Origin: Candidatus Sericytochromatia bacterium
Lineage (GTDB): Bacteria > Cyanobacteriota > Sericytochromatia > S15B-MN24 > UBA4093
Assembly (NCBI GenBank): GCA_036676985.1
Contig: JAKFBU010000047.1
Coordinates: 1-64,000 of the forward strand
Direction: 5' to 3'
DNA length: 64,000 nucleotides
Part shown: piece after piece, positions 34,036 to 62,240 of the stretch
How the letters are laid out: the number at the start of each line of letters is the position of its first letter
Position numbering within the stretch: the stretch's first letter is position 1
The notes under the pieces: generated by a model
Databases searched by the model: none
Told to the model about the DNA's origin: nothing
The model's input: the letters and a program-made list of their open reading frames with translations, nothing else
Made by a program: the position numbers and the translations under genes

Positions 34036-34443
34036 ATGACAAGTGGACAGCAAGGGTTCACGCTGATCGAGGTCGTGGTCGCCGCCGTCATCCTCATGAT
34101 CGTCGCCGTCAGCTCTTTTTCGGCCTTCACCAACAGCAGCCGGGTCGTGCGCACCAGCGAGGCCCTGTCGGGGGTAACGAGCATCGAGCGGGTGGCCCAG
34201 AGCTACCTGCGCAACCTGGACTTCGGCATCCTCAGCAACGCCACCGAGAGCACGGTGGCCACGGGCATCAAGGCCCAGCTCACGGCGGCGGACTGGAGCC
34301 GGCTCGGGGCGACGGGCAGCGTCACCGTCACGCGCTTGACCGTCGAAGAGCGCCTCGTCACCGTGGAGCTCAGCGTCGGCTACGGCGCGAGCGGCGTGGC
34401 GACAAGCTCGCTGCGCATCGCGCGGCGGGGGGTGAACCCATGA
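34036..34443 (+). CDS. Type IV minor pilin (PilV-like)
   Basis: Prepilin site QGFTLIEVVV. Confidence 0.85.
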   Translation: MTSGQQGFTLIEVVVAAVILMIVAVSSFSAFTNSSRVVRTSEALSGVTSIERVAQSYLRNLDFGILSNATESTVATGIKAQLTAADWSRLGATGSVTVTRLTVEERLVTVELSVGYGASGVATSSLRIARRGVNP

Positions 34444-35018: not shown

Positions 35019-35026
35019 GAGGCCCC

Positions 35027-36199
35027 ATGAGGAACCAAGAACGAGGCATGGCGCTGTTCACGGCTCTCATCCTGAGCACGGTGCTGGTGCTCCTGGTCTC
35101 CTTGAGCGTTCGCTACGCCGTGACCTCCTCCAAGACCATGCAGAGCGACCGGGCGCGCGCTCAGGCCCTGAACGTGGCCGAGGGCGGCGTCGAGTGGGCC
35201 GTCTCGGAGTTCGACCCCACGGCGCTTGCGAGCCTGGCCACTAGCAGCAGCTTCGGCTCGGGAGACTACACGCTGACGTCCCGTGCCTTGCCCAACAACC
35301 GCTACGCCATCCGCGCGGAGGCCTGGATCCCGTCGTCCGCGAGCGCGCAAGCGCATCGCACCATCGAGGTGGTGCTCGCCACCGCGAGCAACCCCCTGGG
35401 CAACTACGCCATGGCCACGGACGGCAACCTGAGCCTCAACGGCTCGGTGACCTTCAACTCGTCGCCCACGGCAGGCCAGGGGAACATCCACTCCAACCAC
35501 GACGTGGACATCAACGGCGGCTCGGCCACCATCCAGGGCAACGTCTCGGCGACCAGCCAGGTGGATCCCTCGAGCTATCCCGGCGTCACGGGCGGGGTGA
35601 CGAGCCAGGCGCCCGAGGTCGAGATCTCGAGCTACACCTCGACCCAGATCCAGGACTTCGCGACCGACGCCAAGGCGATCGCCACCAAGGACATTACGAG
35701 TGCCCTGGGGGGCGTGCTTTCGGGCTACTACCAGAGCTACGCGGGCTACGACATCCAGGACTCGGCCAACACGACGGGCGGCACCCTGAGCATCAGCGGC
35801 GGTACGGTCACCATCAGCGGGACCGTCTTCATCGAGGGCAACCTCTCGATCAGCGGTAACGCGCGGGTGGAGGGCGACGGCCTCATCGTCGTCACCCAGC
35901 GCATCTCCATCAGCGGCAACCCCTACGTGGAGGGCTCCACGGCCTCGAAGCTCGGCATCGTCACGCTGTCCAGCCGCGCGCCGGCCATCGACCTGGGCGG
36001 GGCGAACAACATCCGGGGCATGATGTATGCGCCCAACGGCAACGTCGAGGTGCACGGCAACGTGAACGTGACGGGCGCCATGATCGCCCGGGGCGTGGGT
36101 ATCGTGCAGGGCAGCGTCACCATGACCCGGGACACGACGCAGAACGTGGACATCCTGGGGATCCCGTACTGGCGGACGGAGTCGTACCGGGAGCTTTAG
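35027..36199 (+). CDS. PilX-like minor pilin with beta-helical C-terminal domain
   Basis: ERGMALFTAL (no E5), QALNVAEGG; Gly/Asn/Ser/Thr-rich solenoid; GMMYAPNG. Confidence 0.8.
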   Translation: MRNQERGMALFTALILSTVLVLLVSLSVRYAVTSSKTMQSDRARAQALNVAEGGVEWAVSEFDPTALASLATSSSFGSGDYTLTSRALPNNRYAIRAEAWIPSSASAQAHRTIEVVLATASNPLGNYAMATDGNLSLNGSVTFNSSPTAGQGNIHSNHDVDINGGSATIQGNVSATSQVDPSSYPGVTGGVTSQAPEVEISSYTSTQIQDFATDAKAIATKDITSALGGVLSGYYQSYAGYDIQDSANTTGGTLSISGGTVTISGTVFIEGNLSISGNARVEGDGLIVVTQRISISGNPYVEGSTASKLGIVTLSSRAPAIDLGGANNIRGMMYAPNGNVEVHGNVNVTGAMIARGVGIVQGSVTMTRDTTQNVDILGIPYWRTESYREL

Positions 36200-36233
36200 C
36201 TCGCCGTACGCCAGTGATGACCTTAAAAGTCGT

Positions 36234-36268
36234 CTCCGTCACCCCCGCTTTCGCGAGGGTGACGGGAG
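36234..36268. terminator. Hairpin between convergent operons
   Basis: ctccgtcaccc...gggtgacgggag. Confidence 0.55.
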
Positions 36269-36271
36269 CGG

Positions 36272-36844
36272 TCATGCGTGGTGCTGACTGACTGGCGGAG
36301 CCAGACGCTGATACAGGTGCTCGTCGCACCACTCGCCATCGATGAAGGCGGCCCGGCGCAGCGTCCCCACCCGCTCGAAGCCCGCTGATTCATACAGGCG
36401 GATGGCCGGCTCGTTGAAGGTCCGGACCTTGAGCTGCACGTTCCAGAGACCAGCCGCGGCAGCCGCCTGTAGGGCCGCTTCCAGCATGGCCTTGCCCAGT
36501 CCCTGGCCGTGATGCTCCCTGAGCAATCCCATCCCGAGCACGCCCACGTGACTCGCGCAGGGATAGGGCTCCGCGGTGATGCCCAGCAGCCCCGCCATGC
36601 GGCCACCCACGCCGACGACCATCAGGAAGCTGCGGGGATGCTCGAGGAAGCGGCGGAGAATCAGGGCCTCGTCGTCGGCCGTCATCCGCTCGAAGTGCTC
36701 GGGACCGTTCATGAGGAACCGGTACGATTCCCGGGCCTGCTGACGCAGGAAGTCCAGCACCTCCTCGGCCTCGTCCACCTCGGGGCTGCGCAGGACATAG
36801 GCCAACCCCGCGCGGGTCGTGCCCTCCTGGGGGACGAGCCTCAT
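36272..36844 (-). CDS. GNAT family N-acetyltransferase
   Basis: HHGQGLGKAML and NEPAIRLYESAGF motifs; start overlaps the pilB stop. Confidence 0.88.
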   Translation of the reverse strand: MRLVPQEGTTRAGLAYVLRSPEVDEAEEVLDFLRQQARESYRFLMNGPEHFERMTADDEALILRRFLEHPRSFLMVVGVGGRMAGLLGITAEPYPCASHVGVLGMGLLREHHGQGLGKAMLEAALQAAAAAGLWNVQLKVRTFNEPAIRLYESAGFERVGTLRRAAFIDGEWCDEHLYQRLAPPVSQHHA

Positions 36845-38943
36845 ATCAGGCTGTCCTCGAAGAAGCAGAACGGACAGCGTACCCACGGGCTCTCGAGCTC
36901 CGCGAGGCAGGACTTGCAGATGCGCTTGGAGAGCTGGAGCTGCTCGGCGCACTTGGGGCAGACCGTCCACTCGGGCTTGACCGCCGTCTGGCACGACGGA
37001 CAGCAGGGGTTGAGGACGTATTTGCAGTAGGGACAGGTGCTGAACGAGTCCTCGACGGCGTTGCGGCAGCGCGGGCAGCTCTGCTCGTTGGAGCCCGAGT
37101 CCGAGTAGATGACGCGGACGAACTCCTCGAAGGTGATGACCCCGTCCCGCACCAGCTCGATGGCGTGGTTGCGGATGGGGATCATGCCGTTCTTCACGGC
37201 GCTGGTGCGGATGATGCTCGACGGATGGCCCTTGACGATGAGCTCGCGGGTCTCCTGGTCGACCATGAAGACCTCGTACACCGCCCGCCGGCCCTGGTGG
37301 CCCGAGCCGTGGCAGGTCTCGCAGCCCTTGCCGCGGTACAAGGGCGTGTCCTCGGGCAGGCCCACCTGGGCCAGGATCTCGGGGTCCGCCCGGTAGGCCT
37401 CGCGGCACTCGGGGCAGATCTTGCGAACGAGGCGCTGGGCGATCGCCCCCAGCATCGCCGAGCCGATGAGGTACGGCTCGATGCCCATCTCGACCAGGCG
37501 CGTGATGGCGCCGGTGGCGTCGTTGGTGTGGAGGCTCGTCAGCACCAGGTGGCCCGTCAGCGCCGCCTCGGTCGCGATCTTGGCCGTCTCGTGGTCGCGG
37601 GTCTCGCCGATGAGCACGATGTCCGGGTCCTGGCGCAGGACGGCCCGCAGCACCCGGGCGAAGGTCAGGTCGATGCCCGTGTTGACCTGCACCTGCGTCG
37701 CGTGCTCGAAGTTGTACTCGATGGGGTCCTCGATGGTGATGATGTTCTTGGTCTTGCTCTGCAGGTGCCCGAGGGCCGAGTAGAGCGTGGTCGTCTTGCC
37801 GGAGCCCGTCGGGCCCGTGACGAAGAAGATGCCCTGCGGGCTCTTGATGATCTGCTCGAAGTCCTTGAGTTGACCCTCGAGGAACCCCAGCTCGCCGATG
37901 CCCTTGATGCCCGCGTTGCGGTTGAGGACGCGGATGACGACCTTCTCCCCGAACTGGCTCGGCATGGTCGAGACGCGCAGATCGACCGTGTTTTCGTTGA
38001 TCTTGACCCGGATCTTGCCGTCCTGGGGCAGCCGCTTCTCGGAGACGTCCAGGTCGCACATGATCTTGAGGCGGGCGATCGCCGCGCTCTGCTGGTGCTT
38101 GGGCACCTGCATGGCGTCGTCCAGGAGGCCGTCCTTGCGGTAGCGCACGAGCAGGGCGCGCTCCTTGGGCTCGATGTGGATATCCGAGACCAGGGTCTTG
38201 ATGGCGCGCCCCAGGATGTCGTTGACCAGCCGCACGATGGGGGCCGCGTTCGGGTCGTCGGCCGTGATGTCCTCGATCTCGGGCCCCTGCGCCACGACGG
38301 CCGCCTCGCTCTCCGGCGCGGGAGCGGCCACGGTGCGCATGAGGACGCTCGGATCGAGCTTCCAGAAGGCGACGTAGGCCTCTTCGGTGGTGGGCACCGC
38401 CGTGGTGCGCAGGCCCGTGATCAAGCGGACGTCGTCCAGGGCCTGGAGGTCGTTGGGGTGCGGAGTGGCGACGATCAGCCGGTCGTGGATGCGCGCCACG
38501 GGGATCATCTGGTACTTCTCGCCGGTGGCGGCCGGCAACAGCTCCAGGAAGACGGGATTCACCTCGGAGCGCTCGAGCCGCGAGTAGTCCCGCCCGACGA
38601 GCGTCTCGACGGCCTCTCGGACCTGGGTCAGGGTCATGTGCCCCTGGCGCATGAGTGTGGCCGCGAGGCTCTGCTGGGTCTCGCCCGGCGCGCGGATGGC
38701 CTCCTCGACATGGTCCGGGTGCACCAGCCCCAGATCCGCCATGATCGCGCCTTCGGCCAGCCGCAGCTGGTAGGCGACGATGTCCCGAGTGGCCTCGGGC
38801 CGGATGGCCTTGGCAGTCACCAGGAGCTGGGCGAGGTGCGCCTCGTCCGAGTTCGCGGCAAGGGCCGTCGCGGCTTGCTGCGGAGAGAGGCGGTTGGTCT
38901 CGACCAATAGCTGCGCGAGATAGTCGTTCTGGGCGGCTAGCAT
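36841..38943 (-). CDS. pilB: PilB/GspE family assembly ATPase with C-terminal zinc ribbons
   Basis: RLPQDG, GPTGSGKTTT, LRQDPD, TGHLVLTSLH; six C-terminal CxxC motifs. Confidence 0.9.
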   Translation of the reverse strand: MLAAQNDYLAQLLVETNRLSPQQAATALAANSDEAHLAQLLVTAKAIRPEATRDIVAYQLRLAEGAIMADLGLVHPDHVEEAIRAPGETQQSLAATLMRQGHMTLTQVREAVETLVGRDYSRLERSEVNPVFLELLPAATGEKYQMIPVARIHDRLIVATPHPNDLQALDDVRLITGLRTTAVPTTEEAYVAFWKLDPSVLMRTVAAPAPESEAAVVAQGPEIEDITADDPNAAPIVRLVNDILGRAIKTLVSDIHIEPKERALLVRYRKDGLLDDAMQVPKHQQSAAIARLKIMCDLDVSEKRLPQDGKIRVKINENTVDLRVSTMPSQFGEKVVIRVLNRNAGIKGIGELGFLEGQLKDFEQIIKSPQGIFFVTGPTGSGKTTTLYSALGHLQSKTKNIITIEDPIEYNFEHATQVQVNTGIDLTFARVLRAVLRQDPDIVLIGETRDHETAKIATEAALTGHLVLTSLHTNDATGAITRLVEMGIEPYLIGSAMLGAIAQRLVRKICPECREAYRADPEILAQVGLPEDTPLYRGKGCETCHGSGHQGRRAVYEVFMVDQETRELIVKGHPSSIIRTSAVKNGMIPIRNHAIELVRDGVITFEEFVRVIYSDSGSNEQSCPRCRNAVEDSFSTCPYCKYVLNPCCPSCQTAVKPEWTVCPKCAEQLQLSKRICKSCLAELESPWVRCPFCFFEDSLI

Positions 38944-48436: not shown

Positions 48437-50443
48437 GTGCAGCCGCACCCCTTCAAGATCAAGGCCGCCTACCAACCCGCGGGCGACCAGCCCAAGGCCA
48501 TCCGACAGATCGTCGACGGCCTCCAGCGGGGCATGGACGCCCAGACTCTGTTGGGCGCGACCGGCACCGGCAAGACCTACACCATGGCCCAGGTGATCCA
48601 GGCGGTGCAGCGGCCGACGCTCGTCATCGCCCACAACAAGACGCTCGCCGCCCAGCTCTGCAACGAGCTCCGCGAGTTCTTCCCGGAAAACCGGGTCGAG
48701 TACTTCATCTCGTACTACGACTACTACCAGCCCGAGGCCTACATCCCCTCGACGGACACCTACATCGAGAAGACCTCGAGCATCAACGACGAGATCGACA
48801 AGCTGCGCCACTCGGCCACCCGATCGCTGCTCGAGCGTCGCGACACCATCGTCGTCGCGTCGGTGTCCTGCATTTACGGCCTGGGTTCGCCCCAGGAGTA
48901 CCTCAAGGGTACACTCCACCTCGCCCAGGGCCAGGAGGTCTCGCGCGACGACCTGCTGCGGCACCTGGTGGGCGTGCAGTACGAGCGCAACGACGTGGAG
49001 CTGATGCGCGGCCGCTTCCGGGTGCGCGGCGACACGCTCGAGATCGTGCCCGCCTGGGAGGAGAACGTCTTCCGGATCGAGCTCTTCGGCGACGAGATCG
49101 ACCGCATCACCGAGATCGACCCGGTCACCGGCGAGATCCTGGGCATCCGCGACGAGCTCGCCATCTACCCGGCCAAGCACTTCGTCACCTCCGACGAGCG
49201 CATGCAGGAGATCATCCGGGGCATCGAGCAGGAGCTCGAGTGGCGCCTGCCCCAGCTGCGCGACCAGAACAAGCTCCTCGAGGCCCAGCGTCTGGAGCAG
49301 CGTACCAACTACGACCTGGAGATGATCCGCGAGATCGGCTACTGCTCGGGCGTCGAGAACTACTCGCGCCACTTCACGGGGCGCGCGCCCGGCGAGCCGC
49401 CCCCGACCCTGCTGGATTACTTCCCCGAGGACTTCCTCGTCGTCATCGACGAGAGCCACGTGACCATCCCGCAGGTCCAGGGCATGTACCAGGGCGATCG
49501 CGCCCGCAAGGAGACGCTCGTCGAGCACGGCTTCCGCCTGCCGTCGGCCATGGACAACCGGCCCCTCAAGATCGCCGAGTTCTGGCAGCACGTGGGCCAG
49601 AAGGTGTTCGTGTCCGCCACGCCCGGCGACTACGAGCTCAAGGTCTCCGAGCAGGTGGTCGAGCAGATCATCCGCCCCACGGGGCTGGTCGACCCCGAGA
49701 TCTTCGTTCGTCCCATCGAGGGCCAGATCGACGACCTGGTGGGCGAGATCCGCGAGCGCGTCGAGCGCGAGGAGCGCACGCTCGTCATGACCCTCACCAA
49801 GAAGATGGCCGAGGACCTGACGGAGTACCTGCAAGAGATCGGCATCCGGGTGAAATACCTTCACTCGGACATCAAGAGCCTCGAGCGCATCGAGATCCTG
49901 CGCGACCTGCGCATGGGCGGCTTCGACGTGCTGGTCGGCGTCAACTTGCTCCGCGAGGGCATCGACCTGCCAGAGGTCTCGCTCATCACCATCCTCGACG
50001 CCGACAAGGAAGGCTTCCTGCGGGCCCATCGCTCGCTCATCCAGATGATCGGCCGCGCGGCGCGTCACCCGCGGGGCCAGGTCATCATGTACGCCGACAA
50101 GTTCACGGACTCCATGACCAAGGCCCTGGACGAGACGGAGCGGCGCCGCTCCATGCAGCTCGCCTACAACGTCGAGCACGGCATCACGCCCAAGGCCATC
50201 ATCAAGAGCACCCGCAACGCCATCCTCGAGAGCCTGACCGGCGAGAAGCTGGCGGCGCCGTTGCCCATGCCGACGGCGGCCTCGCCGGACGACGTGCCCA
50301 AGCTCCTCAAGGAGCTCGAGACCCAGATGAAGGCCGCAGCCGCCATCCTCGACTTCGAGACCGCAGCCCTGCTGCGCGATCGCATCCAGGCCCTGCGCCT
50401 CCAGCAAGAGAAAGCCCGCAAGGACATGAAGCTGCATGGCTGA
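48437..50443 (+). CDS. uvrB: Excinuclease ABC subunit B
   Basis: [27 protein letters not shown] and C-terminal UVR domain. Confidence 0.98.
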
Positions 50444-53249
50444 TCTGCGCACGCACCGCGAGCTCACCGAGCGGGGAGAGGCGGCCGTCGTCTCGGCCCT
50501 GCTCGCCCTCGGGGCCGACTACATCATCCTCCCGCACCTGCTCTTGCCCGGCATGCTCGGTCCGCGCAACCCCGACGACCTGGACGTGGTCGTGCTGGGG
50601 CCGCGCGGCGTGGCGCTGGTCGAGTACCGCCATTGGCACGGCCATCTGACGCTTGCCCCCTCCGGCGAGCCGTGGGTGTTGCGCTTCGCCGCGGGCGGCG
50701 AGGAGGCGCGTCCCAACCCCGCGGACACGCTCGTCACCAAGTCGGAGGCGCTGCGCGACCACCTGCAGGCCCAGGGCCTCGCGCCCACGCTCATGGTCCG
50801 GGCCGTGGTCGTGCCGGACCGCACCCAGCTCGAGGGCACGGCCGACGTCCCCGTCATCCCGCGCTCCGAGCTCTCCCGCTGGATCACCGATGCCCTGCAC
50901 GGCGAGGGCACGCCCTGGACCGCGCAGGCGGCGGATCTGCTGCGGCCGCCCACGCCGCCGCGCATGGTCAACCAGTACCGCCTGACCTCGCTGCTGGGAC
51001 GATCGGTGGAGCGCACCACCTACCTGGCCTACGACACCCTCAAGGCGCGCGTCGTCTCCCTGCGCGAGCTGCCCTACGATCCCTTCCAACGTCCCGAGGA
51101 GCTGGAGCGGACCCGCCTCGAGCTCCTGCGCGAGGCCAAGCTCACCATGGAGCTGCAGCACCCGGCCATCGAGCGCATCGAGCAGATCATCCCCCAGGAC
51201 GACTGCTACTACGTGGTGGGCGAGTGGCTCGAGGCCGCCATGAACCTGCGCGAGGTGCTCGGCCAGGGCCCCATGAACGTCGAGACGGCGCTCGACATGG
51301 CGATCGCCTGCGCCGACGCCCTCAGCTACGCCCACGGCAAGGGCGTCGTGCACCGCAACGTGCGCCCCGAGAACATCCTCTTGGCGGGCCGCGTCGTCAA
51401 GCTCACCAACTTCAAGCTCGCCAAGAAGGCCGATCTCGCCACCCGGTCCAGCTTCGACCTGCGCGCCATGGCCCAGGAGAACCCCTACGCGGCCCCCGAG
51501 TTCCGCCTGGGCGCGGAGGGCCACCACCGGGTGGACGCACGGGCGGACATCTACGCGCTGGGAGCCGTCCTGTACGAGGCCCTGACGGGTACGCCCCCCT
51601 TGCATCTGGACGAAAAGTACTGGACCGCACCCTCGGGGACCAACCCCGCGGTCAAGCTCGCCCTCGACGAGGTGGTCCAGCAGGCGCTGCGCTTCGATCC
51701 GGCCCAGCGGTTCTCGACCATGAGCGCCTTCCGCGAGCGGCTCCTGGCCATCCGGGAAGGACGGACCGGCGATCAGGCCGGCATGCGGTACTGCGATCGC
51801 CGCCTGGTGAAGCGCACCCGCAACAGCCTCCTCTACCGGGCCACGGACACGGAGCGGGGCCGCGAGGTCGCCCTCAAGAAGATCCTGCTCGATCCCATGC
51901 TCTCGCCCGACGCGCGCATGGCGTCGGTGCAGCGCCTCTTGCGCGAGGCCCCCATCGCCTCTTCCCTGGTTCACCCGCGCATCGTCACGGTCCTCGACAC
52001 CTTCGTCGAGGACGAGGACCCCTTCGTGGTCATGGAGTGGCTGGACGGCCACGACCTGCGCGAGCACCTGGACGGCAAGCGGCCGGCGCTCGGCGTGGAC
52101 GACGCCCTCGACGTGGTGCGTCACGTGGGCGAGGCCCTGGTCTACGCTCACGGCCAGGGGATCGTGCACCGGGACATCAAGCCCGAAAACCTGTTAATTG
52201 ACGGCACGCGCGTGACGGTCCTGGACTTCGGCCTCGCGACGGTCGCGGGCGAGGAGTCGGACGACGCGGCCCGGCCCGGCGGGACCGTGCGCTACATGGC
52301 GCCCGAGGTGCTGCAGGGGGCGATCGCCGATCCGCGGTCGGACGTCTACAGCCTGGCCGTGGTGCTATACGAGCTCTTGACCAACCGCTATCCCTACGGG
52401 GCGGACGCCATCATGGGGCGCTTCTCGGAGGTGGCGGAGGGCGTGGCCCCGCCGAGCCACCTGAACTTGGCGGTGACGCCCGCCCTGGACACGCCCATCC
52501 TCAAGGCGCTGGCGGTGGATCCCGAGGAGCGGCAGCCCACCATGGAGGCCTTCCTATCGGAGCTCGCGGCGGCCGAGGACGAGGGCGAGCCCGCGGGCTT
52601 CCTGCCGGCGGGGGACGTCCCCTGGAAGACCCTTTCGTTGGTCGCCATCGGGGCCATGCTGATCGGCGGGGTGGCCATCGGCATGTACCTGAGCGGGCCC
52701 GGCGTGCTCTTCAGCAAGCGGAGCCAGGGCGCCGTGGCGTCCCAGTCGGTGGCGGTGGCCCCGGTGGCGACGGAGAGCCTGGCGCCGCTGGTGGAGGCGA
52801 CCCTCGCGCCGGAGCCCACGCCCTATCCGACGCCCACGCCCACGGAGGTACCGGCGGCGATGGTGACCTGGGCGAGCTCGCCCGTGACCATCGCGGAGGT
52901 CACCATGCAGGTCGAGCGGGTGGAGCCCATCCAGGCGACGTCCGAGACGCTCGTCACGCTCAAGATCAAGAACCTGAGCGCGTCGCCCCTGACGCTCTTC
53001 AACGGGGGCAATGCGGGCGATCAGCTGAGCATCACGGACGACCTGAGCGGCGACTACACCTCGACGGTGGACTGGAGCACGGTCTCGCCCGAGCTCATCC
53101 TGGTGGACGCGGGCCGGACGGTGGAGGGGACGTTCCGGCTCTCGCGGGCCATCGACCAGGCGGCGAACCAGGTGCAGGTCCTCGTCCGGGAAGAGGGCGG
53201 CCAGGGGCGCGAGTTCCTGTTGCGGGCTTATCGGATGGAGATCCGGTAG
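50436..53249 (+). CDS. NERD-like domain + two Ser/Thr kinase domains + TM + extracytoplasmic domain
   Basis: NERD-like GE...[18 protein letters not shown]; kinase 1 [11 protein letters not shown]; kinase 2 [21 protein letters not shown]; one TM. Confidence 0.88.
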
Positions 53250-53304: not shown

Positions 53305-53847
53305 TTACAGCAGCGGCTGCACCGCCTTCCACAAGGTCATGCGGTCCACGCTGCCCGGAAACACCCGCACGATCCGGCCCTGGCGATCGACCAGGAACGA
53401 GGTCGGCGTCCCCTCGAGGCCGCCGTACCGCTTCACCACCTCCGGGTTGCCGAGCGCGAGCGCGTAGCGCACCTTCAGCTGCTCGGCGAGGCGCTCGACG
53501 CTCTTGCGGTCGTCCCGGTGCAGGGAGATGCCGATGATCTCGAACCCCCGGGGCTGGAGACGCTCGTAGAGGACGTTGAAGTCCGGGATCTCGTCGCGGC
53601 AGTGCTGGCAGCTCGCCTCGTAGAAATTGATGAGCACGACCTTGCCCCGATAGGACGACAGCCGGATGCGCTCCCGGCCCAGGTAGTCGGGCAGGGAGAA
53701 GGCCGGAGCATGCTCGGGAGCCACGGGGCGCCGCACCGCATGCGCGGGAGCCACCCTGGCCTGGTCCTGGTAGCCCTGATAGGCGAGCCCGCCGATGACG
53801 GCCGCCAAGGCGACGACCTCCACGATGCGACGCGTCGCTGCCTTCAC
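53305..53847 (-). CDS. TlpA/ResA family thiol-disulfide oxidoreductase
   Basis: N-terminal TM, GKVVLINFYEASCQHC, cis-Pro motif TPTSFLVD. Confidence 0.9.
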   Translation of the reverse strand: MKAATRRIVEVVALAAVIGGLAYQGYQDQARVAPAHAVRRPVAPEHAPAFSLPDYLGRERIRLSSYRGKVVLINFYEASCQHCRDEIPDFNVLYERLQPRGFEIIGISLHRDDRKSVERLAEQLKVRYALALGNPEVVKRYGGLEGTPTSFLVDRQGRIVRVFPGSVDRMTLWKAVQPLL

Positions 53848-53979
53848 GGGGATCTCCTTTCGCTCGGATGAGCCCTGAAGGCTATCAAAGCAGACGGCGC
53901 GCGCGCGGACACCGGCGGATCCCACGAATTCCGCCTGGCCGCTGAGCAAGCAGCCGAGGGATCTCGGAGAGCCGCTTGG

Positions 53980-54519
53980 CTACAGCAAGGGGGCGATCGC
54001 TTCCTTGAGCGTCTTGTCGTCGACGGCCCCTCGGAAGGTCCGCACCACCCGCCCCTCGCGATTCACCAAAAAGGACATGGGGACCGCGTCGATCCCGCCG
54101 TAGCGCTCGGCCACCTCGTCGTTGCCGATGACCAGGGGGAAGAGCACCCGGTGCTCGCGGGCGATCGCCGAGACCTGCCGGGCGCCGTCCAGGAGCCCCG
54201 ACTGGTCCAGGGAGATGCCGACGATCTCCAGGCCCTTGGGCTTCAGCTCGCGGTAGACCCGGTTGAAGGCGCCCATCTCATGCTGGCAGTGCGGGCAGAT
54301 CGTCTCGTAGAAGTTGACGAGCACGACCTGTCCCTTGAGGGCCGACAGCCGGATGTTGCGCCCGCCCTGGTAGATCGGCAGGTCGAAGTCGGGCGCGGTG
54401 CGAAGCTGCTGCTGGGCGGACATGGGTGCGATCGCCTGGCGAGCCTGATAGCTCTGATAGCCACCGAAGGCGAGACCCACGACCGCCAGGCCGAGGAGCC
54501 AGCGCGCGGACGATTTCAT
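53980..54519 (-). CDS. TlpA/ResA family thiol-disulfide oxidoreductase (paralog)
   Basis: N-terminal TM, GQVVLVNFYETICPHC, VPMSFLVN. Confidence 0.9.
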   Translation of the reverse strand: MKSSARWLLGLAVVGLAFGGYQSYQARQAIAPMSAQQQLRTAPDFDLPIYQGGRNIRLSALKGQVVLVNFYETICPHCQHEMGAFNRVYRELKPKGLEIVGISLDQSGLLDGARQVSAIAREHRVLFPLVIGNDEVAERYGGIDAVPMSFLVNREGRVVRTFRGAVDDKTLKEAIAPLL

Positions 54520-54595: not shown

Positions 54596-55030
54596 TCAGC
54601 GCCACCACTGCGAGCGAATGCAGCGGTTTCGAATGCGCCGGCAGAGCTGATAGGTGCCGTAGCCGCCGTAGGAGATGCGGTTGTTGATGCAGCGCCGGAA
54701 GACGCGCTGGCAGCGGGCGAAGATCCCGTAGCCGAAGCCGCCGTACCAACCGCCACCCCCGCCCCAGGAGCCCTGCTGCACCTGCAGCCCACCGATGCGC
54801 TGGGTCTGAGCCGGGGTTGCGGACGGGGTTGCCGGCTGCGCGTCGCTGCCGGAGTCCAGCTGACGGATCAGGGCGTCGAGCGACGCGTCATCGGCTCCTT
54901 CCGTATCGTCCTGCTGGACCTGGTACGTGACGGAGGGCGCGCGGGGCTGGGTGAGAACCGGGGTCGACGGGGCGCAGGACGTCAGCAGCAGCACGCTGCC
55001 GATCGCCATCAGGGAAACTCGTCTGAGCAT
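54596..55030 (-). CDS. Lipoprotein-signal precursor with VQQ motifs and Arg-rich CX6C-X15-CX6C C-terminus
   Basis: GGAGG SD, lipobox LTSC, YQVQQ and LQVQQ, core CQRVFRRC...CRRIRNRC. Confidence 0.75.
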   Translation of the reverse strand: MLRRVSLMAIGSVLLLTSCAPSTPVLTQPRAPSVTYQVQQDDTEGADDASLDALIRQLDSGSDAQPATPSATPAQTQRIGGLQVQQGSWGGGGGWYGGFGYGIFARCQRVFRRCINNRISYGGYGTYQLCRRIRNRCIRSQWWR

Positions 55031-55287
55031 GTCCACCTCCTCGAGCGGAAGGCCCGGATGCCGGCTGCCCGAGAACGCTCGCTCGAGCCGCTCCCGGCGT
55101 GGCCTTCCGCCCATGGGGGTGTTTATAGCGGAGCGCGGACGCGGATGCAGTGGAGGATCTGACCAGCTTCCATAAAGAAGTTTTCCGTTCGCGCCATCGC
55201 CTCGTCGCTCGGCTAATTGGCCGTCCGCCCCCCGGAAGGGCCCATTGGAGCCGATCGGCTCGGGTCGCGCGGCCGCTCGAGTGAGGG

Positions 55288-56196
55288 TTAGCCGAACAGC
55301 GTCCGGGCGTTGCCGGAAAGCAACGCCGCGCGGGCCGTCGCGTCGAGCGAAAGGCCTGCGAGCGCCTTGAGTTCCCGGTCCCATGCGTAGGGCAGGTTCG
55401 GAAAGTCTGAGCCGTACAACATGCGGTGCCCCCACTGCCGCATGAGGGCGTCATCTGGACGCTGCGGGAAGTAGTCGGCGAGCATCATCGTGGTGTCGAG
55501 CCAGAGCAGCTCGAACTCCTCGAGCAGGGCCGCATAGGCCTCGATCTCGTCCGCTCCGAGGTGCGGCACGACGACCATCAGATCCGGGTGCCGCTCGAGC
55601 ACGGAGCGCATGGCCCGCACCGAGAGCAGGCCCCGGGCATCGAAGCCGTACGCGGGCGAGGCGGGCTCGCGGCCCGCGTGGATGACGACGGGGCGCCCGG
55701 CCTCGGCGCACAGGCGGTAGATGGGGTCGAGCCGCGGATCGTCCGGCGCGAGCCGCTGGACGTGGCAATGCAGCTTGATGCCGCGCAGTCCCAGCGGGCC
55801 GAGCGCCTCCTTGACGATGGCCTCGGCGTCCGGCTCGCCGGGCAAGACCGTGCCGAGCGCCCAGACTTCCGGGTGTGCCGCGGCTACCTCTGCCGCATAG
55901 CGGTTGAGGCTGCGGGCCATGTCCGGCACGTGGGCGTAGTGGAGGCCGACGATGCGCTTGACGCCCCGTTCCAACAGGAAGCGGACGGTCTCTTCGGCGT
56001 AGAGCCGGTAGCGGATGGGCCAGGCATGGGCCTCGAACCACCGCCAGATGGCCTCGTAGACCCGCGGAGGAAACAGGTGGACGTGCGCGTCGATGACCTC
56101 GAGGTCGTCTGGCAGCCGGTCGCCCTCGGCGTCATCGAGCGCGGGAAGCGGGAAGGTCCCCTTCTTCCACAGGCTCTCGATGAGGCCCTCACACAT
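55288..56196 (-). CDS. Amidohydrolase_2 family protein
   Basis: IDAHVH, GIKLH, VIHAG, PHLG and YGSDFP motifs. Confidence 0.9.
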   Translation of the reverse strand: MCEGLIESLWKKGTFPLPALDDAEGDRLPDDLEVIDAHVHLFPPRVYEAIWRWFEAHAWPIRYRLYAEETVRFLLERGVKRIVGLHYAHVPDMARSLNRYAAEVAAAHPEVWALGTVLPGEPDAEAIVKEALGPLGLRGIKLHCHVQRLAPDDPRLDPIYRLCAEAGRPVVIHAGREPASPAYGFDARGLLSVRAMRSVLERHPDLMVVVPHLGADEIEAYAALLEEFELLWLDTTMMLADYFPQRPDDALMRQWGHRMLYGSDFPNLPYAWDRELKALAGLSLDATARAALLSGNARTLFG

Positions 56197-57388
56197 CGGA
56201 CGGCGAGACCCCCTGGTCCATGGCGGCCTCTTGGGCTTCCGAGCCGCCGGCGCTGGGAGGACGCGGGCCGAAGTACTGGTACAGGTCGCAGCGGATGTTG
56301 CCGTTGTAGAGCTTGCGCTTCTTGTGGGCCACCCGGTCGAAGAGGCGCTCGAAGTCGGGATGCGGCGTGATGACGAAGAAGGACCAGGTCTCGAGCGGCT
56401 TGAACACGCGGCCCATGTCCCGGTACAGCTGATCGACCTCGGGCTTCTCGCCCAGGCGCTCGCCGTAGGGCGGGTTGGTGATGACGTAGCCGTACTTCTT
56501 CTTGGTCGAGAAGTCCTGGACGGCCTTCTTCTCGAAGTTGATGACGTCCTCGAGCCCCGCGAGCTTGGCGTGGTAGCGCGCGGTGGAGAGCACCTCGGCC
56601 GAGGAGTCGGAGCCGTAGATCCCGCGGATGGCCGCGTCCCGGCGCATGAGGTCCTCGGCCTCCTGTTTGGCGTCCGTCCAGACGTGCCCGGGGATGACGC
56701 CCCAGTTCGTGGCGTCGAAGTCCCGGAACATGCCGGGGGCGATGTTCCGGGCGATGAGGCCCGCCTCGATGGGAATGGTTCCCGAGCCGCACAGGGGATC
56801 GACGAGGGTCCGGTCCGGATGCCACCGGCTGATGAGCACGAGGGCGGCCGCGAGCGTCTCGCGCAGAGGAGCTGGCGCCGTGAGCTTGCGATAGCCGCGC
56901 TTGTGCAGGCCGATGCCCGTGGTGTCGATCGTGAGGGTCGCCACGTCCTTGCGCAGGTCGATGAGGATCCCGAACCGGGAGCCCGACTCCTCGAAGCGCT
57001 CGCGCTTGTAGCGCCGCTTCATGGCCTCGATGATCGCCTTCTTGACGACACCCTGGGCGGCAGGGACGCTCGAGAGCTGGGACTGGTTGCTCTTGCCCTC
57101 CACGTGGATGAAGGCGTCCTCGGGCAGGATCTCCTCCCAGGGCAGGGCCTTGGTCTGATCGAACAGCTCATCGAAGGTGCGGGCCGGGAACTCTCCCAGC
57201 TTGAGGAGCACGCGCTCGGCTGTGCGTAGCCAGGTGTTGGCGCGCGCGACGGCGCTCCAGTCCCCCTGGAAGGTGATCCGGCCGTTCTCGACCTTTGGGT
57301 CCTGGTAGCCCAGCGAGCGGATCTCGTGGGCGGCGAGGGCCTCGAGGCCCATGGCGGTGGTGGCGACGAGTGTCAGGGCTTTAGTCAT
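56189..57388 (-). CDS. THUMP-domain class I RNA methyltransferase (RlmL/YpsC-like)
   Basis: LHKRGYR, APLRETLAAA, DPLCGSGT and TNPPYGERL motifs. Confidence 0.92.
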   Translation of the reverse strand: MTKALTLVATTAMGLEALAAHEIRSLGYQDPKVENGRITFQGDWSAVARANTWLRTAERVLLKLGEFPARTFDELFDQTKALPWEEILPEDAFIHVEGKSNQSQLSSVPAAQGVVKKAIIEAMKRRYKRERFEESGSRFGILIDLRKDVATLTIDTTGIGLHKRGYRKLTAPAPLRETLAAALVLISRWHPDRTLVDPLCGSGTIPIEAGLIARNIAPGMFRDFDATNWGVIPGHVWTDAKQEAEDLMRRDAAIRGIYGSDSSAEVLSTARYHAKLAGLEDVINFEKKAVQDFSTKKKYGYVITNPPYGERLGEKPEVDQLYRDMGRVFKPLETWSFFVITPHPDFERLFDRVAHKKRKLYNGNIRCDLYQYFGPRPPSAGGSEAQEAAMDQGVSPSDV

Positions 57389-57411
57389 CCCGCCATGATA
57401 GCAGAGGTGCG

Positions 57412-58023
57412 CTAGTCGCGGCTGACCGGGTACCGGATGATGGTCTTCAGCTTCTCGGGGGCCGAGCGCCTCGCATCCCCCAGGTAGATCTCGTGGTGCT
57501 TGCCCGCCATTCGCATGCCTTCGGCCGCGATGAAGGCGTGGAGCCGTTCGACGGTCGGGACCTCCGTGGCGTAGGGGCCGATGTGCATGATCTGGGCGGC
57601 CTGGCCTTCGTGCAGCCGTTCGAGCCGCAGCGCCTCGCGCGCGGGCAGCTCCTTGCCCTTGCGCTCCAACTCGGCGAGCACGGTGGCGAGGTCTTCCGGG
57701 GTGACCTCGTCCGGCACGGCGATCATGGCCGTCCAGCACCAGGCCTCTCGGTCCAGGTAGTCGAAGGAGGTGTTGTCGCCCATCCACCACAGCCCTTCGA
57801 GCGGCATCACCGTATAATCGTGTCCCCGCTTCTTGAGCAGGAACTTCAGGCCGTAGGCGACCGGAAAGAGGGTGCCCATGGCGGCCGCGAACCGCGGGCC
57901 GCCCGGATCTCCTTGCCCGTCGATCATGAGGTAGTCGAGATCCGGGACGCTCACGAGGGAAGGGGCCTGGGCGGGCGCGGTGTAGGCGCTACGGTGGGTC
58001 TTCTTGAGGTCGACGGGCGGCAT
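57412..58023 (-). CDS. GyrI-like small-molecule-binding protein
   Basis: YLMIDGQGDP, PLEGLWW, HIGPY and HHEIYLGD motifs. Confidence 0.88.
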   Translation of the reverse strand: MPPVDLKKTHRSAYTAPAQAPSLVSVPDLDYLMIDGQGDPGGPRFAAAMGTLFPVAYGLKFLLKKRGHDYTVMPLEGLWWMGDNTSFDYLDREAWCWTAMIAVPDEVTPEDLATVLAELERKGKELPAREALRLERLHEGQAAQIMHIGPYATEVPTVERLHAFIAAEGMRMAGKHHEIYLGDARRSAPEKLKTIIRYPVSRD

Positions 58024-58031
58024 CGGGCTCC

Positions 58032-58625
58032 TTAGGCGGGCGAAACGGGGTAGCGAATCAGCAGCTCCAGTGGACACCGGTTCGAGCGGCGGGGGTCCGA
58101 GAGGTAGATCTCGTGCCGCAGGCCCGAGAGGTTCAGGCCGTGCTCGTGGGCAAAGTGGAGCAGGCGCTCGTAGGTGGGGCCTTCGGGCACGGTGGGACCG
58201 CGCTGCAGCACCTGGACCGCCTGACCCTCATTTACCCGGCCGAAGCGCATTTCATGGAAGGAGGGCAGCACCTGCTCCAGCTCGTCCAGCGTCTCCAGGG
58301 CCATTTCGAGGTGATTGAGGGTGGCGTCGTCCGGTAGGGACACCATCAGGGTCCAGGTGCCCTGCTCGTGATGCGCGCCGTCCTGCCGCCAGAGGCATTC
58401 GATGGGAACGGGGCGCGGGCTGTAGTCGGGGTCCATGAGCAGCCAGAGGGTGGCGGAAAGCGGTTCCAGGGTCTGCCAGGCGGCGTCGAACTCCGCGCTG
58501 GTGCTGGGATCGCCCTTGCCGTCGATCATCAGGTAACTGGTGGCGGGCACGTCGACGAGGATCGGGTTCAAGGCGGCTGGCTCCAGCAACGGGGGGGTGA
58601 TCGGTTTCGGGAGGAGCATCGGCAC
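58032..58625 (-). CDS. GyrI-like protein (diverged tandem paralog)
   Basis: YLMIDGKGDP, PIECLW, HEIYLSDPRR and LIRYPV motifs. Confidence 0.8.
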   Translation of the reverse strand: MPMLLPKPITPPLLEPAALNPILVDVPATSYLMIDGKGDPSTSAEFDAAWQTLEPLSATLWLLMDPDYSPRPVPIECLWRQDGAHHEQGTWTLMVSLPDDATLNHLEMALETLDELEQVLPSFHEMRFGRVNEGQAVQVLQRGPTVPEGPTYERLLHFAHEHGLNLSGLRHEIYLSDPRRSNRCPLELLIRYPVSPA

Positions 58626-58739
58626 CGGGGGCCTCCTTTCGAGCGGACCTCTCTAGGTTACATCTCGTAATGAACCCATGCATCCGTATGAACCCGAGGG
58701 TGCTGGCGCAGGTTGGCCCGGGGCGCTACAATCAGCTGC

Positions 58740-59378
58740 ATGACACAGCGAAAAGGCTTGATGATCGTCGTCGAGGGCATCGACGGCATGGGCAAATCCA
58801 CGCAGCTCGCGGCTCTGGAGTCCTTCCTGACGTCCGCGGGCTACCGCGTGCGCCGCACCAAGGAGCCCACCGACAGCGCGTACGGGCGCGAGATCCGGCG
58901 CATCGCCCAGGAGGGTCGCGCGGGTGTGACGCTCGAGGACGAGCTGAACCTCTTCCTGAAGGACCGGGAGCTCGATGTCCGGGAGAACATCCTGCCGGCC
59001 CTGGAGGCGGGCGAGGTGGTGCTCATCGATCGCTACTTCTACTCGAACATCGCCTATCAGGGGGCGCTCGGGCTGGACCCGGCCCACATTCGCCGGGCCA
59101 ACGCGCAGTTTCCGGTCCCCGACCTCGTCATCCTGATGGACGCCCCGCCCACCGTCGGCATCGGGCGCATCCGGGGCGGCCGCGGGGAGGCCAACAACCA
59201 GGGCTACGAGCAAGAGGACTTCCTGGAAAAGGTCCGGGCCCTCTTCCACGCGATGCCGGATCCCAACATCGTCCGCGTCGACGCCACCCGCGACCTCGCG
59301 ACGGTCACGCGCGACGTGCGCGACTTGGTGGCGAGTCGCCTTGTCGGCAAGCAGCTCACGAAGGAGTCAGTTGTCTAA
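58740..59378 (+). CDS. tmk: Thymidylate kinase
   Basis: EGIDGMGKSTQ, TKEP and DRYFYSNIAYQG motifs. Confidence 0.95.
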   Translation: MTQRKGLMIVVEGIDGMGKSTQLAALESFLTSAGYRVRRTKEPTDSAYGREIRRIAQEGRAGVTLEDELNLFLKDRELDVRENILPALEAGEVVLIDRYFYSNIAYQGALGLDPAHIRRANAQFPVPDLVILMDAPPTVGIGRIRGGRGEANNQGYEQEDFLEKVRALFHAMPDPNIVRVDATRDLATVTRDVRDLVASRLVGKQLTKESVV

Positions 59379-59437
59379 CGGCCTGGTTTGAGCCGGTATT
59401 GCGTTGCGTTGATGACAATTTCAACGTGTTGATGACG

Positions 59438-59465
59438 GCGGCCTCCCCGGGCTCGGGGAGGCCGC
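59438..59465. terminator. Hairpin between tmk and the Cys-peptide genes
   Basis: gcggcctccccg-ggct-cggggaggccgc. Confidence 0.7.
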
Positions 59466-59472
59466 TGCTCTG

Positions 59473-59796
59473 TTAGTCCGCCTCGTCGCCACCGCCACCA
59501 CCACGATAGAAGTATCCCGTGCCCAGCGCGTTGATGCACGTGGTCCGGCGCGCCCGGCAAACCCGTCGGGCGGTCCGGTAGCCCAGGCTGTAGCGCAGGG
59601 TCCCCATGCAGTTCCAGTAACGGGCGCGGCAAATCTGGACTCCGGTGCCGCCCTCGTACTGCTGGACGGCTCGTGACCCGACGGACGACGTCTCCGGGGC
59701 CGTCGGGCCGGTGGCCGCGACGTTGGGGCCACAGCCCGAGAGGGCCGTCATGGCGACCAACCCGATGCCGAGCATGAGTTTGCGAGTGCCGTTCAT
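59473..59796 (-). CDS. Lipoprotein-signal precursor with VQQ motif and CX6C-X16-CX6C core
   Basis: Lipobox LSGC, RAVQQYEGGTG, CRARYWNC...CRARRTTC. Confidence 0.8.
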   Translation of the reverse strand: MNGTRKLMLGIGLVAMTALSGCGPNVAATGPTAPETSSVGSRAVQQYEGGTGVQICRARYWNCMGTLRYSLGYRTARRVCRARRTTCINALGTGYFYRGGGGGDEAD

Positions 59797-59819
59797 GCGT
59801 CACCCCCTCATTTGCAGGA

Positions 59820-59847
59820 CGACGATCGGCCGCGAGGCCGATCGTCG
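59820..59847. other. Perfect intergenic stem-loop between the tandem peptide genes
   Basis: cgacgatcggcc-gcga-ggccgatcgtcg. Confidence 0.7.
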
Positions 59848-59854
59848 ATTGCCG

Positions 59855-60145
59855 CTAGCGCGAGCGGTAGAAGAAGCCCTCGCCGAGGGCGTTGATACAG
59901 GTGGACCGCCGCTGAGCGCAGACGCCGAGCGCCTGATCGCCCAGGCTCGGAACGAGCTGGACGAGGCAGTTACGGTAGCGGGTCTGGCAGATCTCCGTGC
60001 CGGTTCCGCCCTCGTACTGCTGGACCTGGAAGCCGCTCGTATTCGCCGTGACCTGGGTCGGCTGGCTGGAAGTGACCGTCGCGGGGCCGCACCCCAGCAG
60101 TCCGACCGTCGCCAGCAGACCAAAACCCAACATATGCCGTGTCAT
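59855..60145 (-). CDS. Lipoprotein-signal precursor with VQQ motif and CX6C-X15-CX6C core (paralog)
   Basis: AAGGAGG SD, lipobox LLGC, FQVQQYEGGTG, CQTRYRNC...CAQRRSTC. Confidence 0.8.
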   Translation of the reverse strand: MTRHMLGFGLLATVGLLGCGPATVTSSQPTQVTANTSGFQVQQYEGGTGTEICQTRYRNCLVQLVPSLGDQALGVCAQRRSTCINALGEGFFYRSR

Positions 60146-60342: not shown

Positions 60343-62154
60343 CTAGGTTCGGACGGAGGCAGGGGCGAACTGCTCGCGGTAGAGCTGCTCGTAGAGCCCG
60401 CCCCGTGCCAGCAGCTCGGAGTGCGTGCCGCGGTCTACGATGCGGCCGTCCTGCATCACGAGGATGAGGTCCGCATGCAGGATGGTCGAGAGGCGATGCG
60501 CGATGGCGAGCGTCGTCCGGCCCTGCATGACCGTGTTGAGGGCCTGCTGGATGAGCGTCTCGGAGTGGGAGTCCAGGCTCGAGGTGGCCTCGTCCAGGAT
60601 GAGCACCCGCGGCGACTTGAGGATGACGCGCGCGAGTGCCAGGCGCTGCTTCTCGCCGCCTGACATGCGGTAGCCCCGCTCGCCCACCACCGAGTCGTAG
60701 CCCTCGGGCAGGCTCGCGATGAGGTCGTGGATGTTGGCCGCACGACAGGCCGCCTCGAGCTCCTCCTGCGTGGCGTCGGGCTTGGCGTAGAGCAGATTCT
60801 CGCGGATGGTCGTGTGGAACAAAAAGGGCTCCTGCGTGACCACGCCGATCTGGGCCTCCAGGCTCTCGAGCGTGACGTCCCGGACGTCGAGCCCATCCAG
60901 GAGGACCCGCCCCTCGTCCGGATCGTAGAAGCGGGGAATCAGGTAGCTGAGGCTCGTCTTGCCCGCCCCCGAGGGCCCCACGACCGCGACCAGCGAGCCC
61001 GGGGCCGCCGTGAAGTCGATGTCCGTAAGGAGCGTCCGATCCTCGCGGTAGCGGAAGCTCACATGCTCGAAGCGCAGCTCGCCCTCGACGCGCGAGAGGG
61101 TCCGGGCGCCCGGACGGTCCTGGATCGCCGGCACCAGGTCCAAGACGGTGAAGATCCGCTCGAAGACGGCGAGGGCCGACATGACCTCCACGTGCACGTT
61201 GGCGAGCGCCGAGACGGGCGAGTAGAGGCGGCCCAGGTAGGCGACGAAGGCCACCAGCGTGCCCACCGTGAGGGCACCGCTCACGATGAGGTGGCCGCCG
61301 TACCAGTAGATGATGGCGGGGCCCAGGGCCGAGAACAGGCCGAGCGCCAGCGTGAACCAACGCCACAAGAGGGACCGCCGGATCTGGATGTCGCGCAGCT
61401 CCAGGCTCAGGCCGCTGTAGCGATCGCGCTCCCGCTTGCGGTTGCCGAACACCCGGCGCATCAGGAAGCCGTTGATGCTCATGGCGTCCTGCACGTAGGA
61501 GGTGAGGTCCGCCTTCTTCTCCTGGGACTGGGTGACGATCTTCTGGCGCAGGCGCCCCACCCACCGGGCGGGCAGGATGAAGAGCGGGAGGATGGCGATG
61601 GCCAAGAGCGCCAGGCGCCACTCGAGCATGAAGACGATGACCAGCGTCGAGAGGACCGTCAGGACGTTGTTGGAGATGGCGAGCACCGTGTCCGAGAACA
61701 CGTCCTGCAGGTCGTTGACGTCGTTGTTGAGCCGGCTGGTGATCTCGCCCGGCCGGGTGGCCGTGAAGTAGGCCATGGTCTGCTGCTGCAGCTTGGCGAA
61801 GAGCTGGAGCCGGATGTCGAGCATGATGCCCTGGCTGACGAGCTCGTCCAGGTAGGTCTCGAGCACGCCCAAGAGGCCCACCACCAGCGGCACCACGATC
61901 ATGCCGACGGCGAGCCAGTTGAGGAGCGCCTGGTTGCCGTGGGGCAGGGCGTCGTCGATGAGGGCGCGCAGCAGGAGGGGCGGGATGAGCCCCAGGACGG
62001 CCGTGATGGCGATGACGAGCAGGGTCCACGCCGCGCGGCCCCAGTAAGGCTTGAAGTAGGCGACGATGCGCCGCAGGTGCTCGCGGGAAAGGGTGGCGCG
62101 CTCCGCCTCGGCGCCGAGGCGCCAGGCTCCCCAGTGACTGCTGCCTCCGAGCAT
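60343..62154 (-). CDS. ABC exporter, fused permease/ATPase (MsbA/MdlB-like)
   Basis: GPSGAGKT, MSGGEKQR, ILDEATSSLD, AHRLST; multi-TM N-terminal domain; no C39 domain. Confidence 0.95.
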   Translation of the reverse strand: MLGGSSHWGAWRLGAEAERATLSREHLRRIVAYFKPYWGRAAWTLLVIAITAVLGLIPPLLLRALIDDALPHGNQALLNWLAVGMIVVPLVVGLLGVLETYLDELVSQGIMLDIRLQLFAKLQQQTMAYFTATRPGEITSRLNNDVNDLQDVFSDTVLAISNNVLTVLSTLVIVFMLEWRLALLAIAILPLFILPARWVGRLRQKIVTQSQEKKADLTSYVQDAMSINGFLMRRVFGNRKRERDRYSGLSLELRDIQIRRSLLWRWFTLALGLFSALGPAIIYWYGGHLIVSGALTVGTLVAFVAYLGRLYSPVSALANVHVEVMSALAVFERIFTVLDLVPAIQDRPGARTLSRVEGELRFEHVSFRYREDRTLLTDIDFTAAPGSLVAVVGPSGAGKTSLSYLIPRFYDPDEGRVLLDGLDVRDVTLESLEAQIGVVTQEPFLFHTTIRENLLYAKPDATQEELEAACRAANIHDLIASLPEGYDSVVGERGYRMSGGEKQRLALARVILKSPRVLILDEATSSLDSHSETLIQQALNTVMQGRTTLAIAHRLSTILHADLILVMQDGRIVDRGTHSELLARGGLYEQLYREQFAPASVRT

Positions 62155-62240
62155 GGCCGACCGACTTTCTAGGGCAACGAATGCCGGGATCCAACCTCGC
62201 ACGCTCCAACGCGGATGTCAACGCGCGGTATACTACCGGT

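Follow-up and report, generated by a model that had tools for sequence, protein, structure and literature searches.

What are three small lipoprotein genes that end in the same four-cysteine module made for? The genes, here called A, B and C, lie on the minus strand of a 64,000-nucleotide stretch of DNA from a Candidatus Sericytochromatia bacterium (assembly GCA_036676985.1, contig JAKFBU010000047.1, positions 1 to 64,000), which is called the window below and to which all plain coordinates refer. To our knowledge, the Sericytochromatia are known from assembled genomes only. An earlier, sequence-only reading took the three genes for precursors that are cut at a VQQ motif to release disulfide-bonded antimicrobial or signalling peptides. 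The reading preferred here, to which we give a probability of about one half, is that they encode exported, lipid-anchored small proteins with a C-terminal helical hairpin that would be oxidatively folded into two disulfides by neighbouring thioredoxin-fold proteins with a CxHC active site. More tentatively, as a proposition that we would sooner doubt than assert, the QQ motif and the lysine-free, arginine-rich part that follows it (the cargo) may belong to an undescribed second step of lipoprotein maturation, of which the twin-CX6C hairpins with their own CxHC oxidase would be one cargo type.

A family of small lipoproteins

Gene A (54596..55030) encodes 144 residues, with the lipobox cysteine at position 19 and hairpin cysteines at 107, 114, 130 and 137. 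From the N- to the C-terminus, it consists of a lipoprotein signal, a Pro/Thr-rich linker, a first YQVQQ (residues 36–40; 54911..54925) that starts an acidic spacer with a predicted helix, a second linker, a hairpin-proximal LQVQQ (residues 82–86; 54773..54787), a Gly/Tyr-rich run and the twin-CX6C hairpin (Cys107 to Cys137; 54620..54712), all on the minus strand. Gene B (59473..59796; 107 residues) has its lipobox cysteine at 22, RAVQQ at 42–46 and cysteines at 56, 63, 80 and 87, and gene C (59855..60145; 96 residues) has its lipobox cysteine at 19, FQVQQ at 39–43 and cysteines at 53, 60, 76 and 83. The lipoboxes end in LTSC, LSGC and LLGC in A, B and C, respectively. In all three, a Pro/Thr/Ser/Ala-rich linker follows the lipobox cysteine, a Gly-rich stretch separates the QQ motif from the cysteine module, and the last cysteine is followed by isoleucine. 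The module is CX6C-X15-CX6C in A and C, with X16 in B. The common layout that had been read from the three open reading frames (ORFs) was thus borne out in every detail, as was the unusual charge of A: past its last QQ there are 11 arginines, no lysine and no acidic residue (net +11), and the spacer between its two QQ motifs is acidic, with the conserved pattern EG..DASLDA.IR.LD.

B and C are about 50% identical, A matches C with a BLASTP E of 9e-5, and a profile of A-type sequences matches that of the B and C types with an hhalign probability of 95.4% (E = 1.6e-8). By these comparisons, the likeness of the three is one of homology rather than chance. Orthologues of each type are present in other genomes and metagenomes (P0008 for B; P0004 and P0005 for C). 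The lipobox cysteine is nearly invariant across the family alignments (A4–A6). All 16 aligned members share the four hairpin cysteines, always with a spacing of six within each pair, as well as the QQ of the hairpin-proximal motif. The 13 sequences of the A-type alignment (A and 12 orthologues) have 40 invariant columns, and the QQ at 39–40 of the first motif is the same in every one. On this sequence evidence, A, B and C are judged to be real, conserved genes of a lineage-restricted family of small lipoproteins.

The family is small, with about 35 related sequences in total. An exhaustive search with a hidden Markov model through 1.84 billion representative proteins gave eight matches at E <= 0.001. 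A wider alignment (A5), used in an indexed search, gave 20; among these, no fewer than 12 are additional orthologues of A, and three are orthologues of a fourth type, D. Among 47 genomes of the class, real members were found in five (the source genome, G000, and G001, G007, G008 and G009), all of a single taxonomic family, f1; a weak match to the broader profile in G084 (E = 0.0087) is left outside this count. A search of 401 genomes across the phylum gave matches in five, and the single match outside f1 spanned only the signal and linker, so that no real member was found in the sampled genomes outside f1. All members that can be placed belong to this one family of Candidatus Sericytochromatia. 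An unplaced metagenomic protein, P0013, is a strongly acidic lipoprotein of 315 residues with five tandem twin-CX6C modules, which suggests that the module also occurs beyond this lineage, in a form of different charge.

The three copies originally counted are an undercount, as the source genome has at least four more. The search of the genome and its relatives that had been proposed proved productive: a pattern scan of the whole genome gave paralogue D (contig C37:5645-6001; L031), with YSVQQH and a CX6C-X21-CX6C module, which adjoins a DAO/GCV_T-type dehydrogenase with no thioredoxin-fold gene nearby. The broader profile gave a tandem group, E1–E3, on contig C18 (14466-15704; L050:1498-2736), where E1 (14466-14816) and E3 (15360-15704) are intact and the copy between them carries an in-frame stop, possibly as a pseudogene or through an assembly error. 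The C18 copies have the lipobox and the twin CX6C but lack [YF]xVQQ.

No match to the family at E <= 1 was found in Pfam or NCBIfam beyond signal-peptide noise, and when the family profile was run on the sequences of all PDB chains at E <= 10, the sole match was to a lipoprotein signal (2yp6). The best score in the ESM Atlas, 0.84, was below the level of a lead, and a metagenome scan gave one locus (L012) without a recognisable member. A literature search returned no description of this hairpin family, and none of the papers it found on helical hairpins with CX6C was bacterial. The statement that the proteins belong to no described family therefore stands for sequence families; for the cysteine framework it does not, since this has already been described in glycocins.

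The predicted hairpin

The sequence-only reading had suggested a disulfide-stapled helical hairpin. AlphaFold2 models two helices with the four cysteines in register, in agreement with that suggestion. For C, with nine aligned sequences, helices are predicted at residues 49–68 and 71–87 with a predicted local distance difference test (pLDDT) of 84–87, and the linker is disordered. The model of A has helices at 102–121 and 124–142 with a pLDDT of 61–73, plus a helix at 46–60 over the conserved acidic segment, for which no confident packing on the hairpin was predicted (predicted template modelling score 0.28). The cysteine positions of C are symmetric about the turn (53+83 = 60+76), and in an antiparallel hairpin Cys1 would therefore face Cys4 and Cys2 would face Cys3. 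We infer a nested connectivity from this, the first cysteine with the fourth and the second with the third. The loop between the CX6C pairs ranges from 15 to 21 residues across the family. A Foldseek search of the C model against the PDB gave no row at E <= 0.001, the best being a periplasmic metal sensor hairpin at E = 2.8, and the best Z among the 48,161 chains compared by VIA-align was 5.3, with generic helical hairpins throughout.

Thioredoxin-fold neighbours

Immediately downstream of A, at a distance of 76 bp, is a gene for a membrane-anchored, TlpA/ResA-like thioredoxin-fold protein with the active site CPHC (53980..54519, minus strand; AhpC-TSA 81 bits and Redoxin 64.7 bits in Pfam). 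It is followed by a second thioredoxin-fold paralogue with CQHC (53305..53949, minus strand), whose start codon is uncertain. Both neighbours score 81–84 bits in Pfam against a cut-off of 26, and the CxxC site is present. Oxidising thioredoxin folds, among them DsbA (CPHC) and PDI (CGHC), characteristically have a histidine before the second active-site cysteine.

This CxHC subtype follows the hairpin family. There are 18 TlpA-like genes in ten f1 genomes, 13 with WCPPC and five with CPHC or CQHC. A twin-CX6C gene lies one or two genes upstream of four of these five CxHC genes (in G000, G007 and G009), and none of the 13 CPPC loci has such a gene. With a CxHC-type profile, the CPHC gene of the window scores 274 bits and the CQHC gene 289, against at most 197 for CPPC paralogues, and in the 47 class genomes the five CxHC genes score 274–303 bits and all others at most 197; of the best matches in the 23 remaining loci, 20 are CPPC, one is CQPC and one CEPC, with one not read. 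Since the profile separates these five genes, the CxHC subtype is restricted to genomes that have the hairpin family (4 of 47).

The arrangement recurs in G009 and G007, where a single hairpin gene lies 42 bp and 70 bp, respectively, upstream of the orthologous thioredoxin-fold gene. The flanks differ: an aldehyde dehydrogenase and an aminotransferase in these two genomes, an amidohydrolase and a kinase in the window. In G001, the orthologue of A abuts the contig end, so its downstream neighbour is not visible. In G008 (C137; L025:2040-2231), a gap of 190 bp separates the aldehyde dehydrogenase from the CPHC gene, where G009 has its hairpin gene. This gap contains a terminator-like hairpin.

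The source genome has a CcdA/DsbD_TM-type protein and two DSBA-family matches, and no match to DsbB (PF02600), VKOR (PF07884) or Thioredoxin_4 (PF13462). A complex prediction for the CPHC TlpA-like domain with the C hairpin scored 0.02, against a mark of 0.32, and is evidence neither way.

The QQ motif and lysine-free cargo

The distance from QQ to the first hairpin cysteine varies from 5 to 42 residues across the family, with low-complexity insertions, and the motif is not confined to the hairpins. In the source genome, [YFW]x[VIAT]QQ was found within 130 residues of the lipobox cysteine in 13 of 1131 candidates, against 1.0 expected from background; these scans took six-frame ORFs rather than called genes, so that the counts include spurious frames. 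Nine of the 13 have no lysine after the motif, over 53–180 residues each and 922 in total, where about 29 would be expected. The other four have 4–20 lysines there and look like chance matches in ordinary proteins.

Besides A, C and D, the carriers include three tandem lipoproteins, one twin-CX3C protein, one Arg/Tyr-rich protein and one Trp/Gly-rich protein. The tandem lipoproteins (G000 C67:809-2623; L053) have TY(E/Q)VQQY and lysine-free, arginine-rich helical tails without cysteine, and they are rare as well, with five related proteins in 5.8 billion. On the same contig, the twin-CX3C lipoprotein (C67:14584-14922; L053) has AYQTQQ and a counterpart in G009. Relatives in G003 and G009 join the same head to RGG- or Gly/Tyr-rich tails or to twin CX3C. 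A degenerate DNA pattern for YxVQQ[YH], run on the 47 genomes, gave five matches in G000 against none in the reversed control, and 0–3 in each of the others. Six matches from other genomes were read: one in G009 and two in G003 are lipoproteins of this class. Two in G130 and one in G001 were set aside as ordinary proteins. Because the distance to the cysteines varies and unrelated C-terminal parts follow the motif in other lipoproteins, [YF]x[VI]QQ is shown to be a modular motif, separate from the fold and common to other lipoproteins of the lineage.

Lysine avoidance extends over the whole hairpin family. In 3209 mature residues of 30 members there are 382 arginines and three lysines, where about 100 lysines would be expected at the 3.1% of ordinary window proteins (420 of 13,358 residues); the sequences are kin, and no probability is attached to this count. 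From reading the sequences, all three lysines stand before the last QQ. The same lysine-free rule also holds across the mutually unrelated tails. Each of the 30 cores has a positive net charge (+1 to +12), which arginine alone supplies. A-type cores have +7 to +12 and come with the conserved acidic helix, and those of the B, C and D types have +1 to +8 without an acidic piece. The anionic pro-piece and cationic core of defensin-like precursors, to which the proteins had been likened, is thus found in the A type; in the B and C types there is no anionic spacer, and the cores are at +1 to +7, which speaks against a defensin-like build as a trait of the whole family.

Glutaminyl cyclase (PF05096) was found in none of ten family genomes. 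A transglutaminase core (PF01841) is present in all ten, with or without the motif class, and does not discriminate.

Proposed maturation

The current thinking is as follows. The proteins would be exported by Sec and processed at the lipobox cysteine by Lgt and LspA, for which the source genome has one and two matches, respectively (both LspA matches on contig C26), and the Pro/Thr-rich linker would tether them to the membrane. The C-terminal module is modelled as an antiparallel two-helix hairpin in which the two CX6C pairs face each other, and it probably holds two nested interhelical disulfides, Cys1–Cys4 and Cys2–Cys3. The CxHC proteins encoded downstream of the ancestral copy may introduce or proof-read these bonds, as their linkage, co-occurrence and active-site chemistry suggest. 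The [YF]x[VI]QQ between linker and hairpin marks the start of the arginine-rich, lysine-free cargo. The hairpin is cationic and rich in aromatic residues, and its most likely place of action is the cell envelope or the exterior of the cell.

The QQ is inferred to mark a boundary between tether and cargo that some factor recognises. Our leading guess is that it serves as the recognition site of a second maturation step, either a cleavage that frees the cargo or a covalent attachment through glutamine. Cleavage would be compatible with all of the data, and it gains some support because the motif is modular and the cargo lysine-free, though it is a guess: a glutamine-mediated attachment or a pure sorting role fits equally well. 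Antimicrobial activity of the hairpins is possible.

Several points weigh against oxidative folding by the CxHC neighbours. The association is not strict: G008 has a CPHC gene with no hairpin gene beside it, its sole family member lying elsewhere, and B, C, D and E1–E3 adjoin no thioredoxin-fold gene. The co-occurrence is drawn from two genera of one family and so counts as one or two independent events. The classical role of TlpA/ResA-like proteins is that of reductants, and an oxidising role for the CxHC site on such a scaffold is suggested by analogy with DsbA and PDI. No partner able to re-oxidise that site came up in the DsbB, VKOR and Thioredoxin_4 searches of the genome. The disulfides themselves are predicted, from a model that carries no coordinates here, and beyond the hairpin the AlphaFold2 models are of low confidence (mean pLDDT 62 and 50).

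Alternative explanations

If the proteins were instead precursors cut at VQQ, releasing stapled, cationic antimicrobial or signal hairpins of the glycocin or defensin type by the Sec-lipoprotein route, much of the above would be accounted for, and we nevertheless regard this as unlikely. The cysteine framework is as given for sublancin and glycocin F (PMC5974097), and a dedicated thioredoxin-fold gene lies nearby, as described for glycocin clusters (PMC6405829). The QQ is invariant and modular and occurs twice in A, bracketing the acidic spacer, and the part after it is distinct, lysine-free and net positive. The paralogues are numerous and divergent, one copy in their tandem group is broken, and C and B lie behind an MsbA-like ATP-binding cassette (ABC) exporter (60343..62202, minus strand, upstream of both). 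However, this exporter has the Pfam domains ABC_membrane and ABC_tran only and lacks the C39 peptidase part, aligning to peptidase-bearing NCBIfam exporters only from profile positions 140–164, and its linkage is known from the source genome alone. The proteins begin with a lipoprotein signal rather than a double-glycine leader, no glycosyltransferase was found among the 55 window ORFs scanned against Pfam, and no immunity gene or protease partner was identified. The anionic spacer is confined to A, and several cores have just +1 to +3.

The same cysteines could also serve in the reduced state, binding metal between the helices (two Cu(I), for instance, or Zn) or shuttling electrons, with the TlpA-like neighbours keeping them reduced. 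TlpA keeps copper-site proteins reduced, TlpA/ResA-like proteins are typically reductants, and the genome has a CcdA/DsbD-type electron importer; conserved arginines beside the cysteines would favour reactive thiolates, and the top, non-significant Foldseek row (E = 2.8) is the metal sensor hairpin. We consider this improbable, since the neighbours have CPHC or CQHC rather than the housekeeping CPPC, there are no conserved His, Met or Asp ligands around the cysteines, the loop length varies from 15 to 21, no metal-handling genes were found nearby among the window ORFs scanned, and the same framework forms disulfides in glycocins (PMC5974097). The lysine-free cargo suggests another function for the QQ, as an acyl-donor site at which a transamidase links glutamine to an amine of the wall or envelope, giving a covalent membrane–wall tether or a matrix block whose cargo could not cross-link to itself. 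The invariant QQ, the absence of lysine from 922 post-motif residues of nine proteins with unrelated cargo types, the position of the few lysines ahead of the motif in the sequences as read and the often Gly/Tyr/Arg-rich, low-complexity cargo all agree with it. Nonetheless, it is the idea to which we give the least credence, a very long shot: lysine avoidance has other possible causes, there is no enzyme candidate, transglutaminase-core proteins being present in ten of ten family genomes irrespective of the motif class, and we know of no bacterial system that uses such a site.

Strain variation and other features of the window

Sequencing runs that carry the locus are soil and groundwater DNA, with no RNA run listed. 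In four DNA runs mapped to it, gene A has nine differences among the best-supported ones listed (53 more exist), all in residues 21–66 of the linker and spacer and three of them synonymous; the CPHC gene has nine by the same listing, six of them synonymous. One soil run has an in-frame insertion of six bases in the Gly run of gene A (54755). A promoter and terminator scan was uninformative.

Convergent with the thioredoxin-fold genes is a gene (50436-53249, plus strand) for a protein of 937 residues with an N-terminal NERD (nuclease-related) domain and two protein kinase domains. Between RNA methyltransferase and thymidylate kinase genes are two adjacent genes for proteins with GyrI-like small-molecule-binding domains (57412-58625, minus strand). 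Further away (32249-38943) is a set of type IV pilus-like genes, encoding PilN, a protein with a prepilin-type N-methylation motif, a DUF7305 protein and a T2SSE ATPase with an MshEN domain.

Comparison with known systems

The thioredoxin-fold neighbours share the membrane anchor and the AhpC-TSA/Redoxin fold with the TlpA, ResA and DsbE (CcmG) proteins, and their best NCBIfam model is ResA. However, they score far below the cut-offs for ResA, TlpA, StoA and DsbE (best ResA score 83.4 bits against 170), and their active site is CPHC or CQHC instead of CPPC. They form a separate thioredoxin-fold subtype, in which a TlpA/ResA scaffold carries a DsbA-like active site, and, since no DsbB or VKOR was found in the genome, they are candidate makers of periplasmic disulfides in these bacteria.

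The hairpin resembles plant α-hairpinins and animal helical-hairpin toxins in shape only: Luffin P1, acrorhagin I and neurotoxin B-IV appear in non-significant Foldseek rows (E = 5–6), and the cysteine spacing and origin of these proteins differ. In its logic, the closest analogue is the twin CX3C/CX9C (CHCH) hairpin, a helix-turn-helix with two disulfides from CXnC pairs that is described as a client of a dedicated oxidase (PMC12114033). The spacing in those proteins is 3 or 9 rather than 6. They are eukaryotic proteins of the mitochondrial intermembrane space, without a signal peptide or lipid anchor, and their oxidase, MIA40/CHCHD4, does not have a thioredoxin fold.

The closest likeness in cysteine framework is to the glycocins. 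As described in PMC5974097 and PMC12457901, these have two short helices with CX6C...CX6C and two nested disulfides, Cys7–36 and Cys14–29 in sublancin 168 and Cys5–28 and Cys12–21 in glycocin F (PMC5974097), and glycocin clusters encode their own thiol-disulfide oxidoreductases (PMC6405829). The family described here has the same CX6C...CX6C framework, with a modelled helical hairpin and a putative nested connectivity, and a dedicated thioredoxin-fold gene near hairpin gene A. Glycocins, however, have a glycosyltransferase, an immunity gene and a leader that a C39 peptidase-ABC transporter cleaves off, and the characterised examples in the sources consulted come from Gram-positive genera such as Bacillus and Lactobacillus, in contrast to the lipoprotein signal, the QQ motif and the much longer tether of the hairpin family. 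No sequence similarity to glycocins was detected in Pfam, NCBIfam or the PDB chain sequences. What appears to be new is thus a sequence family of stapled hairpins with the glycocin cysteine framework on a different export route, together with a short motif and a strict avoidance of lysine that are common to otherwise unrelated lipoproteins and point to a novel processing or anchoring step. If the QQ motif does belong to a second maturation step and the hairpins are one of its cargo types, they would be glycocin-like stapled hairpins that a diderm bacterium makes by lipoprotein export in place of a leader-peptide route, and, if they are released and active, a new source of compact, disulfide-stabilised peptides.

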